Below, in pieces: positions 4,835 to 34,525 of a stretch of 64,000 bases of DNA. The notes below the pieces were generated by a model. It worked only from the letters and a program-made list of their open reading frames with translations. It made no database searches and was not told where the DNA came from. The translations under genes and the position numbers were made by a program. Positions within the stretch are counted from its first letter, which is position 1. The number at the start of each line of letters is the position of its first letter. The stretch spans positions 15,488 through 79,487 of the forward strand of contig CAUDEF010000001.1 in assembly GCA_958448515.1 (NCBI GenBank), in the 5' to 3' direction. Source of the stretch: an uncultured Phascolarctobacterium sp. (GTDB lineage Bacteria > Bacillota > Negativicutes > Acidaminococcales > Acidaminococcaceae).

Positions 4835-5919
4835 ACAGGATCCGCCTTACTGTTTTGCTGATAATCAAGCTGTGCCTGAATCATATCATCAAAAAGCTTA
4901 GTTTTCTCCGGACCTTCGATGATAATAGGATCTTGCTTTATACCACTTATATAATCAGGTACAAGTTCAAGAACTGTATGCTCGGCATTTGTTACAACAT
5001 CAGGACTAACCTTTACAATTCTTCCTTTAATTCTCAAAATGCTTCTGGCAACTCTCCCTAAAGTGACTGCTGATGTAAGTTTTGTCGCCTTAACAATAAC
5101 TTCATATTCCGGATAGCTTCGTTCGCGTCTGTAGGTAATAATTTTCCCATCTCTATTACATACATGGCCGCTGTTAGTTACAGGAAAGCAATCTCCCATT
5201 GGCAGACCACCAACTACCAATTCAAAGAACTCCTGTCCCTTATTTACAGATGTAGGTACAAGTTCAATATCGTCTCTAACTGGTATACCGTCCATGGTTA
5301 ACCAACCAAATTCCTGGCATCCATATAAGTCGTGTACTTCTGCATTAAGTACTTCTTCAGCTATTGGCAGCAGTTCGAGATCAAGAGGAGTACCTGCTGT
5401 CAACAGAACGATATTTTTAGGCAATTCATCTGCAACACCCATATGTTTAGCATCTTCCAAAGCCGCTCTGATAAATGAAGACTCGCCTAAAACTGCATGG
5501 GGCTGAAATTCGTACAAAGCTGCCAAAAAGGCATCTCTGCTTGAACGAACAAGAAAGGACCACTCTATACCATACTTTTTAAAAGCGTCACCAGAAAAAA
5601 CATTTACTAAAGGCGGATAAGTTACCAGAACTCTGTCGCCTGCTTTTAAACCTGCTCTCTCTAAAATTTTAAAAGAGGCTTTTATTCTGTTTGGCATTTC
5701 AGCAAAAGTAACACCAACAATATTTTGAAAAGCAGAAGAACCAGTAGTAAAAGTCAAGTACGCAAAATTAAGAGGTGTATGAACTTCCTCAATAGTATGC
5801 GCAGCAGTGGGACCTGCTATTCCCTTATCTGCCAGAGTTCTTCTGGGCATATCCTCAAATTTTGGTGCTGAACCAAAATCCTTTACCAAACTGCAAATCT
5901 CTTTAAGAATACCGTCCAT
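4816..5919 (-). CDS. adenylate-forming (PaaK/F390-synthetase-like) enzyme at the madH position; candidate ACP-SH:acetate ligase
   Basis: 367 aa with FTTGSS and HDLYGCQEFGW blocks, reminiscent of phenylacetate-CoA-ligase-like enzymes. AGGAGGG RBS. Occupies the slot between the carboxyltransferase genes and mdcG, as madH does in Malonomonas. Confidence 0.55.
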   Translation of the reverse strand: MDGILKEICSLVKDFGSAPKFEDMPRRTLADKGIAGPTAAHTIEEVHTPLNFAYLTFTTGSSAFQNIVGVTFAEMPNRIKASFKILERAGLKAGDRVLVTYPPLVNVFSGDAFKKYGIEWSFLVRSSRDAFLAALYEFQPHAVLGESSFIRAALEDAKHMGVADELPKNIVLLTAGTPLDLELLPIAEEVLNAEVHDLYGCQEFGWLTMDGIPVRDDIELVPTSVNKGQEFFELVVGGLPMGDCFPVTNSGHVCNRDGKIITYRRERSYPEYEVIVKATKLTSAVTLGRVARSILRIKGRIVKVSPDVVTNAEHTVLELVPDYISGIKQDPIIIEGPEKTKLFDDMIQAQLDYQQNSKADPVWTKRN

Positions 5920-17935: not shown

Positions 17936-19204
17936 TTAGAAATAACTGCGTACACCTACATAGGTATCCTGTTTTGTACCTTTAAGATCCATGCTTTCGC
18001 CATATAAAGACAAATTACTGTTCAGCTTCAGTTCGCCGCCCAGACGTATTTTACTGTTATCAAAATCATAGTACTGAGAATACAGCTTAAAGCTGTCACC
18101 AAAATTATAGCTTAAGCCAACGCCAAATTCTCCCTGCATGGCACCCATGCTCAATCCGGCATTGCCCATATATTTACCGGCAATAAAATCAAACTTGTTG
18201 CTCTCACCCAGGTCGTAACCACCCATATATACAAAACTGTCATCAGAAGGTGTCAGGGTTACACCTAAATTACTGCGCCAGTCAGTATCGCTCAGGCTGG
18301 CACTTACATCAGCCTGCAAACGGGCATCGCTCACTGTACCAAGTATTTTATTGGCACGGGCACTTGCTTCTTTGGCATTTACTACAGTTTCTTTTAAAGA
18401 CTGTTCTACAGCAGGATCTGTAGCCACATTTTCCAGCACCTTAACAATATTTTCTACTTTCTCGCTTGTATCTGCCAGGTTCTGAGCCATTCTTGCAACA
18501 TTTCTGCCAGTTTCACCGTTATTATCCATACCTGCCATAATACTTTCCATATGCATGGCAACCCCATTCATGCGCTTGCTCATTTCATTCATCTGGAAAA
18601 TCATGGCGTTGATATCCTTTTGATTTTCAATAGCCACATCAGCCATAACCTTGGTAAAGGTATTCATATTTTCACTGATGTCCCGCATGTTTTTAAAGCC
18701 ATCACGCATGGACTGCTGAACTTCCTTATCGCCAAAAACATTATTCAGTGCATCAGCTATGTTTTCCACTTTAACCATTAAATCACCAGAGGAAGCAAAA
18801 AATTCTTCCATTCCGCCGCCGGGAATACCTTTTAACTTACTGCCTTCAGTAATATATCCCTGCCCCGGATTGGCAGGAGGTATAACATTAACAAATTTTT
18901 CACCCAAAATACCGTCAGAACCTATGGTAAAAACTGCGCCCTGCGGAATTTTTATATTATCATCAATTTCGGCAGTAACTTCAACACTGCCGGATGTCAC
19001 ATCAATAGCTTTAACCGTACCTACCTGCACACCTGCGTAGCGTACAATATGACCCGGCATCAGTCCGCTTACCTGGGGATAATCAATTTGCAGTTCATAT
19101 CCACGATCGCCGAAAGTAAAAGCTCCCATAAAAGTAATTATTCCCGCCAATACCGCAAAACCACCAAGGGTAAAGGCGCCAACCTTCACTTCATTGCTGC
19201 TCAT
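17936..19204 (-). CDS. mlaD: MlaD (MCE-domain) protein with ~280-aa C-terminal extension ending in a beta-barrel-like segment
   Basis: N-terminal TM plus MCE domain (VSGLMPGHIVRYAGVQVGTVKAIDV). The middle is helical. The last ~120 aa have alternating hydrophobic residues and end ...YVGVRSYF. Confidence 0.8.
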   Translation of the reverse strand: MSSNEVKVGAFTLGGFAVLAGIITFMGAFTFGDRGYELQIDYPQVSGLMPGHIVRYAGVQVGTVKAIDVTSGSVEVTAEIDDNIKIPQGAVFTIGSDGILGEKFVNVIPPANPGQGYITEGSKLKGIPGGGMEEFFASSGDLMVKVENIADALNNVFGDKEVQQSMRDGFKNMRDISENMNTFTKVMADVAIENQKDINAMIFQMNEMSKRMNGVAMHMESIMAGMDNNGETGRNVARMAQNLADTSEKVENIVKVLENVATDPAVEQSLKETVVNAKEASARANKILGTVSDARLQADVSASLSDTDWRSNLGVTLTPSDDSFVYMGGYDLGESNKFDFIAGKYMGNAGLSMGAMQGEFGVGLSYNFGDSFKLYSQYYDFDNSKIRLGGELKLNSNLSLYGESMDLKGTKQDTYVGVRSYF

Positions 19205-19959
19205 TGTTCATCCTCCTTCTGTAATTCCTGTCCGTTTATAAAAGCCTGTACAACAGGATTAGTACTGCTGCGTATTTCTTCTACAGTGCCAACCTGCACT
19301 ATTTTTCCATTATGCAGCATGGCAATTCTGTCAGCTGTAAAAAATACCGATTCCATATCATGAGTTACTAAAAGCGACGCTACATGCAGCTGCTCCTGTG
19401 TTTTTCTGATCAGCCTGCTGATAGTCATTGTCATTACCGGATCAAGACCGGAAGTAGGCTCATCATAAAAAACTATCTGCGGGCGGATAGCCAATGCTCT
19501 GGCAAGACCAACACGCTTTTTCATACCGCCGGATAATTCTGACGGCAGCATGTTTTCGGTGCCGGGAAGTCCTACCATCTGCAGCAGCTCACTCACTCTT
19601 TTGCTGATTTCTTCTTCCGGCAGCTTAAAATGTCTGCGCAGACCAAAGGCAACATTTTCTCCTACCGTAAGAAAGTCAAACAATGCAGAATACTGAAATA
19701 CAACGCCCATATTTCTGCGCTGCTCGTCCCATTCTTCCTCACCAAAATCAGCCGTGTCACAGCCGTTAATAATAACACTTCCCGAGGTTGGTTTTAAAAG
19801 ACCTGTCAGCACTTTCATAACCGTACTCTTTCCTGTTCCGGACGGCCCGATAACTGCCAGTGTTTCTCCGGGATAAATATCAAGGTCTATTTCATTTAAA
19901 ACTACTTTAGAGCCAAAAGCCACTTTTAATTTACGTACTTTAATTACCGGTTCCTGCAT
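19201..19959 (-). CDS. mlaF: ABC transporter ATP-binding protein MlaF
   Basis: Walker A GPSGTGKST, signature LSGGMKKR, Walker B IVFYDEPTSGLD. AGGAGG RBS lies 8 nt before ATG 19959. Confidence 0.85.
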   Translation of the reverse strand: MQEPVIKVRKLKVAFGSKVVLNEIDLDIYPGETLAVIGPSGTGKSTVMKVLTGLLKPTSGSVIINGCDTADFGEEEWDEQRRNMGVVFQYSALFDFLTVGENVAFGLRRHFKLPEEEISKRVSELLQMVGLPGTENMLPSELSGGMKKRVGLARALAIRPQIVFYDEPTSGLDPVMTMTISRLIRKTQEQLHVASLLVTHDMESVFFTADRIAMLHNGKIVQVGTVEEIRSSTNPVVQAFINGQELQKEDEQ

Positions 19960-26544: not shown

Positions 26545-27000
26545 TTACTGCTCCAGTTTCTTTTTCGTCAGATGAAGTTTTTCTCTGTACTCTTCTTCCT
26601 GTATTTTTCGTTCTAAGGCAAGTTCATTTAAACGGCGCTCTTTTTCCTCCAGGCGCTCCTGCTCAATCTTGCGCAACTCTGTCATGGTTTCACTGTTTTT
26701 AGTTAACTCTTCTTCACGCATAGCAAGCCATTTCTTTTTTTCTTCAGCAATCATTTTGCGTTCTTTTTCAGCACGCTTGCGCTGCTCAACAGCCATCAGC
26801 TGCGCTTTAGACAGCTTAGGCTCACTTTTTTTCATTGTACGATATACAAGATAACCTGCTAAAGTCAGAGGAAATACAAAAGTCGCAATTAACCATATAT
26901 TGGCATAACGTATATTTCTTTTGTTTGCATCAGTATATACATAATAAGCTGCTCCTGCAGCAATAACAAACTTAACAATAACTGGCAGCATGCCTTCCAT
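26545..27000 (-). CDS. hypothetical membrane protein with Lys/Glu-rich coiled-coil tail
   Basis: GGAGG RBS. Two N-terminal TM segments, then a ~90-aa charged helical region. No family recognised. Confidence 0.55.
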   Translation of the reverse strand: MEGMLPVIVKFVIAAGAAYYVYTDANKRNIRYANIWLIATFVFPLTLAGYLVYRTMKKSEPKLSKAQLMAVEQRKRAEKERKMIAEEKKKWLAMREEELTKNSETMTELRKIEQERLEEKERRLNELALERKIQEEEYREKLHLTKKKLEQ

Positions 27001-27012
27001 TTTATCCTCCGC

Positions 27013-27207
27013 CTACATAGGCATATTATTAATTTTCATCTTATCAGCTAAGATATAATAATGAGTTTCTTTTTCCATAATAAGTTTTTTCAAAGAAGCA
27101 ACTTTTGCTACGTCGTCACAGCTTTTTAACTGTGCACGCAGATCAATTATTTCCTGTTTTAATTGCAGCATTTTAGCGGCAGTTGTGGAATTTACTACAT
27201 CGTTCAT
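27013..27207 (-). CDS. small hypothetical coiled-coil protein (64 aa)
   Basis: AAAGGAG RBS. Its stop is 12 nt before the next gene. No family recognised. Confidence 0.45.
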   Translation of the reverse strand: MNDVVNSTTAAKMLQLKQEIIDLRAQLKSCDDVAKVASLKKLIMEKETHYYILADKMKINNMPM

Positions 27208-27354: not shown

Positions 27355-27774
27355 CTATTTGCCCTGAGACATTTTATAAGTTTTCAGACGGCTTAATGCT
27401 CTGTTCAATGCTGCTTCAGCGCGAAGGATATCGGTATCAACAGTAGGATTTGCTAAACGTTTTTCAGCTCTTTCTTTAGCTGCTTCAGCACGAGCAACAT
27501 CGATATTCTCTGCAAGCTCAGCTTTAGCACTAAGAATAGTAACTTTGTTTTGTCCTACTTCCATAAAGCCAACATCAAGGCTTGCAAAATGATCAATGCC
27601 TTGTGCATCGCGATATTTGAGCGGAGCAGCCTTTAATGTAGAAATCAAAGGTGCATGGTTAGCAAAAATGCCTATACCTCCATCAAGAGCTTCAGCAAGA
27701 ACATAAGTTACATCTTCTCTGAACAGTAAGGACTGATCAGGAGTAACTATTTCCAATTGCATCATTTTAGCCAT
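27355..27774 (-). CDS. atpC: F1 ATP synthase epsilon subunit
   Basis: 139 aa. MQLEIVTPDQ... begins the beta-sandwich, followed by a C-terminal helical hairpin. Follows atpD. Confidence 0.9.
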   Translation of the reverse strand: MAKMMQLEIVTPDQSLLFREDVTYVLAEALDGGIGIFANHAPLISTLKAAPLKYRDAQGIDHFASLDVGFMEVGQNKVTILSAKAELAENIDVARAEAAKERAEKRLANPTVDTDILRAEAALNRALSRLKTYKMSQGK

Positions 27775-27778
27775 GCAA

Positions 27779-30126
<2,348 letters not shown>

Positions 30127-30133
30127 CAGTTAC

Positions 30134-31990
30134 TCACCTCGCTTCGCCGGTGACTGCAAAGGTTTCCTTAAATTCGGAAATAGCTTTTTTCAAAGCTTCT
30201 TCATTTTCAGCAGTAATTTTCTTTTCGCTGACAATGGATTGACCGATTTCCGGATAGTTAGCGCCCAGGAATGCGAGCAATTCTTTTTCAAAACGAGTAA
30301 CATCAGCTACAGGGATATCATCAACATATCCGTTGGTTGCAGCATACAAGGACATAACTTGTTTTTCTACAGACAGCGGAACATATTGACCTTGTTTTAA
30401 AACTTCAGTCATACGTGCACCACGATCAAGTTGTGCTTTAGTTGCTTTATCCAAATCAGAACCGAACTGAGCAAACGCTGCCAATTCACGATATTGAGCA
30501 AGATCCAGACGCAGAGTACCTGCAACGGATTTCATAGCTTTGATTTGTGCACTACCACCTACGCGGGATACAGAAAGACCTACGTTGATAGCAGGACGGA
30601 TACCGGAATAGAACAATTCAGATTCCAGATAAATCTGACCGTCGGTAATGGAAATAACGTTGGTAGGAATGTAACCGCCTACGTCACCAGCAAGGGTTTC
30701 GATAATCGGCAGTGCAGTGATAGAACCGCCGCCAGCTTCCTTGTTACGACGAGCAGCACGTTCAAGCAGACGAGAGTGCAAATAGAATACGTCGCCAGGG
30801 TATGCTTCACGTCCTGGAGGACGACGGAGCAACAGGGACATAGCACGATATGCAACCGCATGTTTGGAAAGGTCGTCATATACGCACAGTACGTCTTTAG
30901 CTTGATCCATGAAGTATTCACCGATAGCAACACCGGTATAAGGTGCCAGATATTGCAACGGAGCAGAATCAGCTGCAGTAGCAGCAACGATAATGGTATA
31001 TTCCATAGCGCCATGTTGTTCGAGGATACGAGCAATACGAGCTACGTTAGAAGCTTTTTGGCCGATAGCTACATAAATGCAGATAACGCCAAGGCCTTTT
31101 TGGTTAATGATAGTATCAATAGCTACAGCGGTTTTACCGGTACCACGGTCGCCGATGATAAGTTCGCGCTGACCACGTCCGATAGGTACCAATGCGTCGA
31201 TAGCTTTGATACCGGTTTGCAGAGGAACGTCAACGGATTGACGAGCTGCAATACCAGGTGCAGGAGATTCGATAGGACGAACAGTAGTAGTTTTGATAGG
31301 TCCTTTGCCGTCAACAGGTTGGCCCAAAGGATTTACAATACGACCAAGCATAGCTTCGCCTACAGGAACTTCCATGATACGGCCGGTACGACGAACTACG
31401 TCGCCTTCTTTGATGAGGGTTTCGCCACCCATCAATACAATACCTACATCGTCAGGACGCAGGTTTTGTACCATGCCGGTAATGCCATGAGGCAGTTCAA
31501 CAAGTTCGCCAGCCATAGCGCCACGCATACCGCTTACAGTTGCGATACCATCGCCGACTTTTTCAATAATGCCGATTTCTTCAAGATCAGCATCGATAGC
31601 GTAATCCTGTACTTTTTGTGCTAAAGCATCGGTAATGCCTGCCGGTTTGCTAATAGATTGACCATCGAGGTCAACTTTATGCATTTCGTTGCCAACTTTT
31701 TCCAGTTGACGACGAGCACTAGCATCATATACATCATCGCCAATTTTAACGATAATGCCGCCGATAATGCTGGAGTCTACCATTTTTTCAAGGTAAACTT
31801 CTTTGCCCAATTTCTCAGCCAGAATTACGGAAACAGATTCATATTCAGATACAGTGAGTTTTTTAGCAGTTATAATTCTAACAGGCAGAATGTCGCCTTC
31901 CATCAGTTCGTCAGCAGGAATTTTTGCCGGGTCAAAGCTGAAATCGATAAGGCTTTTTCTGATGATAGAAAATTTGTTTTCATTCTCCAT
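30134..31990 (-). CDS. atpA: F1 ATP synthase alpha subunit fused in frame to an N-terminal delta(OSCP) C-terminal-domain-like segment
   Basis: The alpha core starts near residue 115 ([12 protein letters not shown]...GDGIATVSG...GDRGTGKT). Residues ~35-105 ([21 protein letters not shown]...[29 protein letters not shown]) resemble the delta C-terminal domain. Start is ATG 31990 or TTG 31999, after GGAGGTGA. Confidence 0.85.
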
Positions 31991-32132
31991 CTGTATCAAT
32001 CACCTCCGTATTCTCCCATCGCTTTGCAATAGGTATTATTAACGAGCAGATTTCTACTCTAAATTTTAATTTAGGGTTTATCCGTTCTTAAACATTCTCA
32101 ATAAGAAGCAAGATCCCTGTCACACTTGAAAA

Positions 32133-32621
32133 TTAATTGCGGTCTTTCAATACAGAATCAGCAGCTGCAGCTACCAGTTTCTGATCTTCTGCAGAGTTCA
32201 ATTTCTGATCAACAATTTTACCGGCAATCATAGTGCTAAGTGCGATAACTTCAGAACGGATATCCAACATAGCCTGTTGTTTTTCCTGTTCAATACGTTC
32301 TTTGGCACTAGCCATCATTTCTTCTTTTTCCACACGAGCCTGTTCAACCATCTCGTCATGGAGATTTTGAGCAATTTTGTTAGCTTTTTCTACAATTTCA
32401 GTTGCCTGTTGACGAGCATCAGCCAGCTGTTGAGTATATTCAGCTTTCAAACTTTCTGCTTCTAATCTCGTTTTTTCAGCGGAATCCAAATCATTAGCGA
32501 TGCGATTGCGACGCTCTTCCATTACTTTAAGTAACGGTTTGTAAGCGAATTTCGCAAGAATTGCCAAAAGAATCAAAAAGTTAAGGATCTGCGCAATAAG
32601 TGTTGCATTAATACTAGCCAA
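32133..32621 (-). CDS. atpF: F0 ATP synthase b subunit
   Basis: 162 aa with one N-terminal TM (ILNFLILLAILAKFAYKPL) and a long charged helix. Confidence 0.9.
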   Translation of the reverse strand: MASINATLIAQILNFLILLAILAKFAYKPLLKVMEERRNRIANDLDSAEKTRLEAESLKAEYTQQLADARQQATEIVEKANKIAQNLHDEMVEQARVEKEEMMASAKERIEQEKQQAMLDIRSEVIALSTMIAGKIVDQKLNSAEDQKLVAAAADSVLKDRN

Positions 32622-32657
32622 TTATAGCACTCTCCTTCTTTGCATTTCCGACAAAAA

Positions 32658-32912
32658 TTATTTTACAAACGGATTAGCAAATACGAGAACGATAGCGATA
32701 ACGGATGCAATAATGGGGATAGATTCTACAAGGCCGATACCGATGAGCATGTTAACTTGGAAAGTGGAAGCTTGTTCAGGTTGACGAGCCATGCATTCCA
32801 AAGCTTTGGAAGCAACAACAGAGTCACCTTTAGTAGCGCCGAGAGATGCACCTGCACCGATGATAGCAGCTGCAAGTACGGAAGTTGCAATAATAATAGC
32901 GTTTTCAGTCAT
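32658..32912 (-). CDS. atpE: F0 ATP synthase c subunit
   Basis: 84 aa from ATG 32912. Hairpin with an ARQPE loop and the carboxylate in GLVESIPII. Confidence 0.9.
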   Translation of the reverse strand: MTENAIIIATSVLAAAIIGAGASLGATKGDSVVASKALECMARQPEQASTFQVNMLIGIGLVESIPIIASVIAIVLVFANPFVK

Positions 32913-33720: not shown

Positions 33721-34131
33721 TCACTCTCCTTTCTTCACGACCGCCTTTTTCTTTAAATCACGGTTCGCGATAATTATGAGATTAATAAGTAAAAATATAT
33801 GCATAAGCAGGAACCCAACGTATATACCTAAAACGTTGAGATCCAGCTTCAACATAACTATAGTAGACAAAAACAATACAGACATTCTGATAAGCATGGT
33901 TCTGTGCATTACGGCAACGGATTCTTTAATAGATTTTTCCATGCCTTTTTTTACTCCGCGGAATGTCAGATAACTGTCAAATACACCCAGCGACAGCCCA
34001 AACAGCCACAATGACGCTGTCAGCATACCATACTTTAATCCGATAAATCCTGCAACGACAACTGCCAAAACAGCCTGTCTACGTAAAATAGTACTCCATG
34101 CAGAGTACACCGCAGCAACAATGCTATTCAT
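33721..34131 (-). CDS. atpI: ATP synthase subunit I-like membrane protein
   Basis: 136 aa, 4 TM, immediately upstream of atpB. Confidence 0.6.
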   Translation of the reverse strand: MNSIVAAVYSAWSTILRRQAVLAVVVAGFIGLKYGMLTASLWLFGLSLGVFDSYLTFRGVKKGMEKSIKESVAVMHRTMLIRMSVLFLSTIVMLKLDLNVLGIYVGFLLMHIFLLINLIIIANRDLKKKAVVKKGE

Positions 34132-34381
34132 CTTTTCTACCCTTATTTTTGTTATTTTTCGACAACAGCAAATCTCTAGTTATAATTTTATAAATAGATA
34201 AAAATGCGGTTACAATACCCATAACGGTGCCAACCAGTCTGCAGGTATGTTTCTCAACCTCCAGATAAACATCCAGCCAGCCGCCAATGTAATATCCTGC
34301 TAATATATTAGCACCAATAATACTAATTACTGACGTAGCAAATAGCAGGGCTTGCATTACTTTTCCGTACTTTGGATCCAT
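34124..34381 (-). CDS. AtpZ/AtpI family small membrane protein
   Basis: 2-TM protein and first gene of the atp operon. GGGGTG RBS precedes ATG 34381. Overlaps atpI by 8 nt. Confidence 0.55.
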   Translation of the reverse strand: MDPKYGKVMQALLFATSVISIIGANILAGYYIGGWLDVYLEVEKHTCRLVGTVMGIVTAFLSIYKIITRDLLLSKNNKNKGRKDE

Positions 34382-34525
34382 AATCAGCACCCCACTCAAC
34401 ACTCATCTATATGGAAATTATAAACTTTATATGTATAATTTTCGACAAATTTGTGAACAGTCCTGCAAAAATCTGTCGGCTGTTTAATATTTTACAAAAA
34501 ATCCATAACTTTTACAACAGTTTTA

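Follow-up and report, generated by a model that had tools for sequence, protein, structure and literature searches.

How many peripheral stalks can an F-type ATP synthase carry when its delta subunit has no gene of its own? The question is raised by the atp operon in a 64,000-nucleotide stretch of contig CAUDEF010000001.1 (assembly GCA_958448515.1) from an uncultured Phascolarctobacterium sp. of the order Acidaminococcales; this whole 64-kb stretch is referred to below as the window. A reading made from the letters alone (the sequence-only reading) had proposed that the operon has no stand-alone atpH and keeps only delta's C-terminal domain, joined in frame to the N-terminus of alpha, and profile searches bore this out. 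Counted from its first TTG codon, the open reading frame (ORF) spans 30134..31999 on the minus strand (621 codons). In this numbering, residues 37-106 matched the Pfam OSCP profile PF00213 at positions 102-172 of 172 (E 2.5e-14, 54.2 bits, cutoff 22.3), i.e., over the C-terminal, b-binding domain of delta/OSCP, and residues 120-615 matched the NCBIfam atpA profile TIGR00962 at positions 5-502 of 503 (800.1 bits, cutoff 484.45). Given the positions of these two matches, the protein consists of a delta C-terminal domain followed by a complete alpha. The alpha domains PF02874, PF00006 and PF00306 all scored above their gathering thresholds, and a profile-profile alignment (hhalign) to 54 stand-alone deltas gave a 99.7% probability for the C-domain at residues 29-109. 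The profile of the alternate, N-type F1Fo ATPase alpha (TIGR03324) reached 613.5 bits, under its cutoff of 750.5, and the operon is thus an ordinary F-type one. The gene is a real, in-frame fusion of a delta C-domain to a complete F1 alpha.

The missing part of delta was sought throughout the window. Positions 1-101 of PF00213, which cover the N-terminal helical bundle, found no match in the ORF, in the spacer between atpF and the fusion, or elsewhere in the 64 kb, in agreement with the sequence-only reading. In addition, a delta profile built from 84 stand-alone deltas was run on the 627 stop-to-stop segments of the window; it matched the fusion over profile positions 106-179 only, and it detected no stand-alone atpH either between atpF and the fusion or anywhere else in the window. 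Its sole marginal match, at 17939-19207, was considered as a second delta and rejected, as it is an MlaD-domain protein. The spacer measures 133 nucleotides (nt) up to the TTG, or 142 nt if counted as far as the first ATG, with stops in all three frames, so that, as had been argued from its length, it cannot hold a delta N-domain. Nor is it a recognizable remnant of the 5′ part of atpH, since all of its frames are closed, its sequence is not conserved and no trace of such a part can be detected in it. The in-frame TGA reported just ahead of the start region lies at 32000-32002, where it closes the fusion frame upstream.

A fusion of this kind could in principle come from an assembly-specific deletion or frameshift in atpH, by sequencing or assembly error, or from a decaying pseudogene, and the sequence-only reading had accordingly asked for re-sequencing and for a comparison with relatives. 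To find related loci, one genome per species was scanned with the fusion's N-terminal region, and six loci (L001-L006) were recovered: one uncultured Phascolarctobacterium (98% identity), four metagenome-assembled genomes (MAGs) of Acidaminococcaceae, one of them a complete chromosome, and one Acidaminococcales MAG. The five more distant loci are 52-63% identical to the window over the query region. All six share one layout, in which atpF is followed by a gap of 67-144 nt, a continuous delta-C/alpha ORF (615-618 codons where complete) and atpG. The exact 618-residue protein is present in a public protein collection, where its 90% cluster has 13 members, nearly all of 618 amino acids, on >150 contigs. 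Two independent faecal-metagenome assemblies at 35-50x coverage, spanning 31300-32700, showed substitutions only in the ORF, and a gut metatranscriptome contig from a strain ~95% identical, spanning 31496-32040, showed 25 substitutions and no gaps; indels among these independent DNA and RNA assemblies were confined to the non-coding spacer. Between the window and L001, the delta C-domain had a non-synonymous substitution rate (dN) of 0 and a synonymous rate (dS) of 0.13, and between L003 and L004 the dN/dS of the delta part was ~0.1, similar to that of the alpha part. By these rates, purifying selection acts on the delta part. The fusion is not an error, since the same ORF occurs in six other genomes and on >150 contigs, the DNA and RNA assemblies carry no indel in it, and its dN/dS is low.

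Artefactual delta-alpha fusions do occur. An apparent full-length delta-alpha fusion, P0213, was found on an unrelated metagenome contig (locus L011, 7001-9072), and is explained by a frameshift artefact in a long-read assembly, because alpha and gamma are each in two ORFs at that locus. It is unlike the Acidaminococcales gene in that its delta is full-length, with the N-domain, and in that alpha and gamma are each split in two; as such, it provides a useful negative control for the calling of gene fusions. With a clean ORF in seven genomes that are 52-98% identical, the >150 contigs, the independent assemblies and the purifying selection, an artefact or pseudogene is already refuted in the present case, and we regard its chance as practically nil; the clade-wide conservation likewise settles the concern about assembly error. 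Outside the Acidaminococcales, the only candidate fusions were P0213 and P0218, both of which resemble frameshift artefacts. From the 50%-clustered protein library only fragments of fusions surface, and this library is uninformative on the spread of full-length fusions because those cluster with ordinary alpha subunits. Two word-index searches for full-length fusions returned short or truncated proteins only.

The start of the fused gene and the number of its products bear on whether delta and alpha stay joined. An ATG at 31990 would give a product of 618 amino acids with the N-terminus MENENKF, and it is almost certainly this codon, and not the TTG, that is used, because the homologs all open with M-x-x-x-E-(N/K) and because a GGAGG precedes the ATG by 12 nt. 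The duplex predicted with the anti-Shine-Dalgarno sequence at this start has a free energy (dG) of -13.8 kcal/mol, and the initiation block, CGGAGGTGAT(T/G)GATACAG, is identical in all seven genomes bar the one T/G position. An internal start yielding a separate alpha was considered and rejected, as neither a conserved start codon nor a conserved Shine-Dalgarno sequence was found at the delta-alpha junction among the homologs compared. There is, to be sure, a methionine at residue 103 of the window protein (MHKVDLDG), and the variable linker at residues 104-116 has been predicted as flexible, features that would suit two proteins from one ORF: internal initiation or proteolysis in the linker would release a free delta C-domain and a 55-kDa alpha, possibly alongside a delta N-domain encoded elsewhere. 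The in-frame starts in the linker, however, are unconserved and shift position among homologs, several of which have no methionine there, and the sequence ahead of them makes a poor ribosome-binding site (dG -3 to -6, as compared with -13.8 for the start at 31990), so that the earlier statement that no stop and no convincing ribosome-binding site divide the two parts holds. With no delta N-domain in the window either, production of two proteins is improbable, and nothing in the sequences compared speaks for a separately initiated alpha. As an observation of its own, the 18-nt block CGGAGGTGATKGATACAG (31991-32008, and at the same place in L001-L006) is near-invariant although the adjacent coding sequence is only 52-63% identical; it may be a translational control element that sets the output of alpha.

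In the single chain (618-residue numbering is used from here on), four parts can be told apart (Table 1). The delta C-domain has a predicted beta-alpha-beta-beta-beta-alpha layout, with a predicted local distance difference test score (pLDDT) of 77-84 in an AlphaFold model, and it keeps the family invariants T41, A42, K60, G62, G77, G78, D85, D89, A90 and R94. The N-terminal segment of 33 residues, in which E5, L9 and L14 are nearly invariant within the clade, has no detectable homolog in canonical delta or alpha, and the profile-profile alignment to delta becomes confident only from residue 29. The possibility that this segment is what is left of the last helix of the delta N-domain was rejected: a few phmmer matches do begin at query residues 9-18, but a forced profile alignment was gapped and of zero confidence. 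The segment could be a new element of the crown or a limiter of stalk number. Individual domains of the model are confident and their relative placement is not (pLDDT 69 overall, predicted template modelling score 0.43), and the root-mean-square deviation of ~18 Å to PDB entry 9JC1 is large because domain placement is poorly determined in the model. The top Foldseek matches of the model were nonetheless the three fusion chains I, K and J of 9JC1 (183 columns, 39% identity, E 7e-13). When the PDB was searched by sequence, 9JC1 chain I ("ATP synthase delta subunit, ATP synthase subunit alpha", 580 amino acids) was again among the top matches, with an alignment that starts in the delta C-domain and crosses the junction to continue in alpha, and the C-domains of solved deltas and OSCPs were matched as well.

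Entry 9JC1 is an engineered enzyme, and it means that the sequence-only reading, sound on the anatomy of the gene, was out of date in taking this stator architecture to be undescribed; it also did not draw the consequence for the number of stalks. Ueno et al. (Nat Commun 2025; PMC12229609) deleted residues 2-104 of Bacillus PS3 delta and attached residues 105-178 to the alpha N-terminus, on the rationale that the delta N-domain, which sits on the pseudo-three-fold axis of alpha3beta3, restricts the enzyme to one stalk. In the engineered enzyme, the contents of subunits a and b came to 2.2 and 1.8 times those of the wild type, the equilibrium proton-motive force was 68 mV as compared with 133 mV, and H+/ATP was 5.8 as compared with 3.0; electron cryo-microscopy (cryo-EM) resolved classes with one, two or three stalks, each with an a-subunit and with the fusion bound canonically (PMC12229609). 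The same authors pointed to a natural fusion without the delta N-domain in the atp operon of A. fermentans (their Supplementary Fig. 9; UniProt D2RLW6), published as gene order and an AlphaFold model only, named two further UniProt entries (G4Q3K6 and A0A1I2C5T3), and considered a natural multi-stalk enzyme "highly likely" (PMC12229609). Phascolarctobacterium is named neither in that paper nor in its supplement. The A. fermentans gene belongs to the same family and agrees with the one studied here in having no stand-alone atpH, in the loss of the N-domain and in the in-frame joining of the delta C-domain to the alpha N-terminus; it comes from another genus, and the two were compared by published architecture and taxonomy. 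The window and the six related genomes, with no atpH between atpF and atpA and the delta C-domain in frame, fit this natural delta(deltaN)-alpha class, and, on the basis of identical architecture and of taxonomy, the window protein is a presumptive sister-genus ortholog of the published natural architecture. Because the gene-level observation and the prediction were already published for the sister genus, the added novelty is limited. What is new beyond Ueno et al. is that the design is conserved order-wide and under selection, that it lacks an internal start, and that both an extra N-terminal segment and the region of initiation are conserved. The engineered and the natural chains share the delta C-domain, a linker and a full alpha with its N-terminal helix. 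The engineered chain differs in that it starts at delta residue 105 and has a short artificial linker of the GGSGG type, and the engineered PS3 enzyme is without the C-terminal domain of epsilon, whereas the window operon retains that domain.

Other multi-stalk or fused systems help to place this one. The natural F1Fo of Chloroflexus aurantiacus has the composition alpha3beta3-gamma-epsilon-delta2-a2-b4-c10, with two stalks (PDB 9ITJ and related entries; PMC12002316). It resembles the enzyme proposed here in that its F1 head bears several delta C-domains, by which several b2 stalks and several a-subunits are brought in round one c10 ring, and it differs in that a separate delta with a shortened four-helix N-domain dimerises, which gives two stalks as compared with the three docking sites offered by the fusion. 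In both solved cases, PS3 and Chloroflexus, stalk number thus tracks the number of delta C-domains on the head. The mycobacterial b-delta fusion (PDB 7JG5) is likewise a bacterial gene fusion of the peripheral stalk that involves delta, with a weak match to the C-domain (E 0.033); there, a full-length delta is joined to b, on the stalk side, in one copy per enzyme with a single stalk. In V/A-type ATPases that have two or three peripheral EG stalks, the stalk proteins are not homologous to those of F-type enzymes, and since there is a single a-subunit, the extra stalks do not multiply the ion channels.

Since the delta C-domain is encoded in the alpha gene itself, every alpha carries a b-binding domain, so that the earlier claim that all three copies do so follows directly from the gene structure. 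We propose that the N-terminal helical domain of delta was lost in an ancestor of the Acidaminococcales and that the remaining C-domain became fused, in frame, to the alpha N-terminus. All three alpha chains would then present a delta C-domain, each C-domain would dock one b2 dimer holding one a-subunit, and the assembly could have two or three peripheral stalks and ion channels round one c-ring. As the ions per turn would equal the number of c-subunits times the number of a-subunits, more ions would pass per rotation, and the ion-motive force threshold for ATP synthesis would be lower. On this analysis, the Phascolarctobacterium fusion enzyme is probably a multi-stalk one with a high ion/ATP ratio. 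The proposed low threshold would suit bacteria that live on decarboxylation steps of ~20-25 kJ/mol driven by Na+-pumping decarboxylases. P. faecium is a succinate specialist with genes for a Na+-translocating methylmalonyl-CoA decarboxylase (PMC7568257), and succinate decarboxylation yields ~-24 kJ/mol as compared with roughly 66 kJ per ATP in anaerobes (PMC8473912); A. fermentans has an analogous Na+ pump, glutaconyl-CoA decarboxylase. The physiology fits a multi-stalk enzyme; succinate decarboxylation yields far less than one ATP. As an illustration, with assumed values of 2 ions per decarboxylation and ~10 c-subunits, two a-subunits would give ~6.7 ions/ATP and ~0.3 ATP per succinate, near the thermodynamic ceiling.

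All characterised F-type enzymes except that of Chloroflexus have one stalk (PMC12002316), and single-stalk particles were common in the engineered sample (PMC12229609). The fusion might therefore be no more than a covalent tether in a single-stalk enzyme, in which one delta C-domain holds b2, two are idle and ion/ATP stays at c/3. This could come about if the c-ring takes up a single a-subunit or if symmetry is broken by the clade-specific N-terminal helices; the conserved residues 1-33 could serve as the limiter. Further points weigh against several stalks: triple-stalk particles were rare in the cryo-EM of the engineered enzyme and its activity was below that of the wild type (PMC12229609); stalk number could be restricted by the 33 extra conserved N-terminal residues of the natural chain and by its linker, which exceeds the engineered one by ~12 residues; the absence of a delta N-domain gene was established within the 64-kb window only; coupling ion and c-ring size cannot be read from the c-subunit sequence, in which the Na+ motif is incomplete; and our search of the later literature found no biochemical or structural work on the natural Acidaminococcales enzyme. 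On the other side, an ordinary operon was enough for the engineered fusion to assemble spontaneously with more than one stalk (on average about two, as judged by gel electrophoresis (SDS-PAGE) and by H+/ATP), and Ueno et al. ascribed the loss of stalks in cryo-EM to dissociation during preparation (PMC12229609); moreover, no sequence feature sets one alpha copy apart from the others. A single-stalk enzyme is thus in our judgement the main rival, a possible but rather unlikely outcome.

The multi-stalk enzyme matters since the ion/ATP ratio sets the lowest energy that a cell can still turn into ATP. To our knowledge, this ratio was thought before 2025 to vary only through the size of the c-ring. 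In the engineered fusion the ratio was doubled by added stalks and a-subunits, and Chloroflexus uses two stalks in nature; in the present case, the fusion design is fixed and under selection across a whole order of gut anaerobes. Phascolarctobacterium, a common succinate consumer of the human gut, draws its energy solely from a small decarboxylation step, which provides a physiological rationale, and the culturable P. faecium and A. fermentans make the multi-stalk prediction directly testable. A wider proposal, on which we are evenly divided, is that the F-type enzyme of the whole order Acidaminococcales (Phascolarctobacterium, Acidaminococcus and relatives) naturally carries two or three stalks, as many a-subunits and an ion/ATP ratio two to three times the usual one, as a clade-wide adaptation by which ATP could be made at an unusually low ion-motive force, that the 33-residue N-terminal helix is a new element of the F1 crown that fills a role of the lost delta N-domain, and that, taken with the tandem C-domain deltas described below, the numbers of stalks and channels would be evolvable by several independent genetic routes.

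The c subunit of the operon was compared with the Na+ c-ring motif of I. tartaricus (Q32, E65, S66, T67, Y70). E65 and S66 are present, while D takes the place of Q32, I or M that of T67, and I that of Y70, so that an Asp stands at the Q32 position and E-S-(I/M)-P-I-I takes the place of E-S-T-G-I-Y; this arrangement is conserved in L001-L005. In the altered site, the T67 and Y70 ligands of Na+ are gone and a second carboxylate is gained. The GxGxGxG motif of helix 1 of the c subunit is also altered, to GAGASLGATKGD, and this change is conserved across the clade.

An exhaustive search with the N-terminal 135 residues of the fusion also returned deltas with tandem C-domains in other lineages, the repeats of which were confirmed by Pfam. 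An N-domain followed by three C-domains was found in proteins of 364-412 amino acids, namely P0027 (364 amino acids, F0F1 ATP synthase subunit delta, Clostridium argentinense/faecium), P0028 and P0032, and an N-domain followed by two C-domains in proteins of 285-291 amino acids (P0035 and P0209). Proteins of ~150 amino acids with two C-domains and no N-domain (P0029/P0185) are on 48+ contigs, and P0039 is also listed among the tandem C-domain deltas. The P0027 and P0185 genes occupy the atpH slot of otherwise ordinary atp operons, with alpha unfused. One literature search on such deltas found no account of them, and they are not mentioned in the text of Ueno et al. or of the Chloroflexus paper as available to us. 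Judged by their sequences, these deltas may offer alternative genetic means of placing several b2 docking sites on one enzyme.

The atp operon of the window is complete on the minus strand at ~27.3-34.4 kb, flanked by wecB and murA, and its order, atpZ, atpI, atpB, atpE, atpF, fusion, atpG, atpD, atpC, is the one first read from the sequence, now corroborated by ORFs, profiles and the related loci. It is the normal atp operon and the sole one in the 64-kb stretch. No convincing terminator or promoter was found between the parts of the operon around the fusion. Across the clade, the spacer ahead of the fusion is unconserved outside the initiation block, its length ranging over 67-144 nt. The coordinates of the features are collected in Table 1.

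Table 1. Features of the fused gene, of the surrounding atp operon and of the tandem C-domain delta loci (window coordinates except in the last two lines).
Feature	Coordinates	Strand	Remarks
Fused gene, delta C-terminal domain + alpha	30134..31990	minus	618 amino acids plus stop, ~67 kDa
Residues 1-33, clade-specific conserved N-terminal segment	31892..31990	minus	predicted amphipathic helix 3-15, then variable loop
Residues 34-103, delta/OSCP C-terminal (b-binding) domain	31682..31891	minus	Pfam; PDB deltas and 9jc1_I; hhalign 99.7%
Residues 104-116, variable linker from last delta helix to alpha N-terminal helix	31643..31681	minus	pLDDT <55
Residues 117-618, complete F1 alpha	30137..31642	minus	N-terminal helix (116-129), beta-barrel crown, nucleotide-binding domain, C-terminal domain
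Translation-initiation block CGGAGGTGATTGATACAG	31991..32008	minus	GGAGG at 32003-32007, 12 nt before ATG
Spacer from atpF to fusion, non-coding, 142 nt to ATG	31991..32132	minus	all frames closed
atpZ-like small membrane protein, first gene of operon	34124..34402	minus	PF09527 (ATPase_gene1), E 3e-07, 30.8 bits, cutoff 26.6
atpI (ATP synthase I chain)	33721..34131	minus	PF03899, E 5.6e-05, 24.0 bits, just under cutoff of 25.1; position kept in related loci
atpB, Fo subunit a, 235 amino acids	33009..33716	minus	orthologs 65-96% identical, same position in L001-L005
atpE, Fo subunit c, 84 amino acids from ATG	32658..32912	minus	Asp at Q32-equivalent, then E-S-I-P-I-I
atpF, single ordinary b subunit, 162 amino acids	32133..32621	minus	PF00430 116.7 bits, TIGR01144 116.6 bits
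atpG (gamma)	29209..30126	minus	
atpD (beta)	27779..29206	minus	
atpC (epsilon, C-terminal helical domain kept)	27355..27774	minus	profile match
Tandem C-domain delta, L007/L008	6001-7095		
Tandem C-domain delta, L009/L010	6001-6456		

Some minor observations were made along the operon. The strongest Shine-Dalgarno match of the operon is that of atpB (dG -15.1), which, as judged within this operon, would fit a requirement for several a-subunits in each complex. In the complete-chromosome MAG (L003, OY782827.1), atpF at ~5411-5914 encodes a b subunit with the tail …GNRQHWHNL, as compared with …DATDQFLENR in the close relative L004, a difference that suggests a single-base indel near the 3′ end of the gene in that assembly. 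Between atpC and murA (26545-27207, minus strand) lie two small ORFs of 151 and 64 amino acids, the longer of which has a hydrophobic segment at its N-terminus and a long helical tail rich in Lys and Glu.

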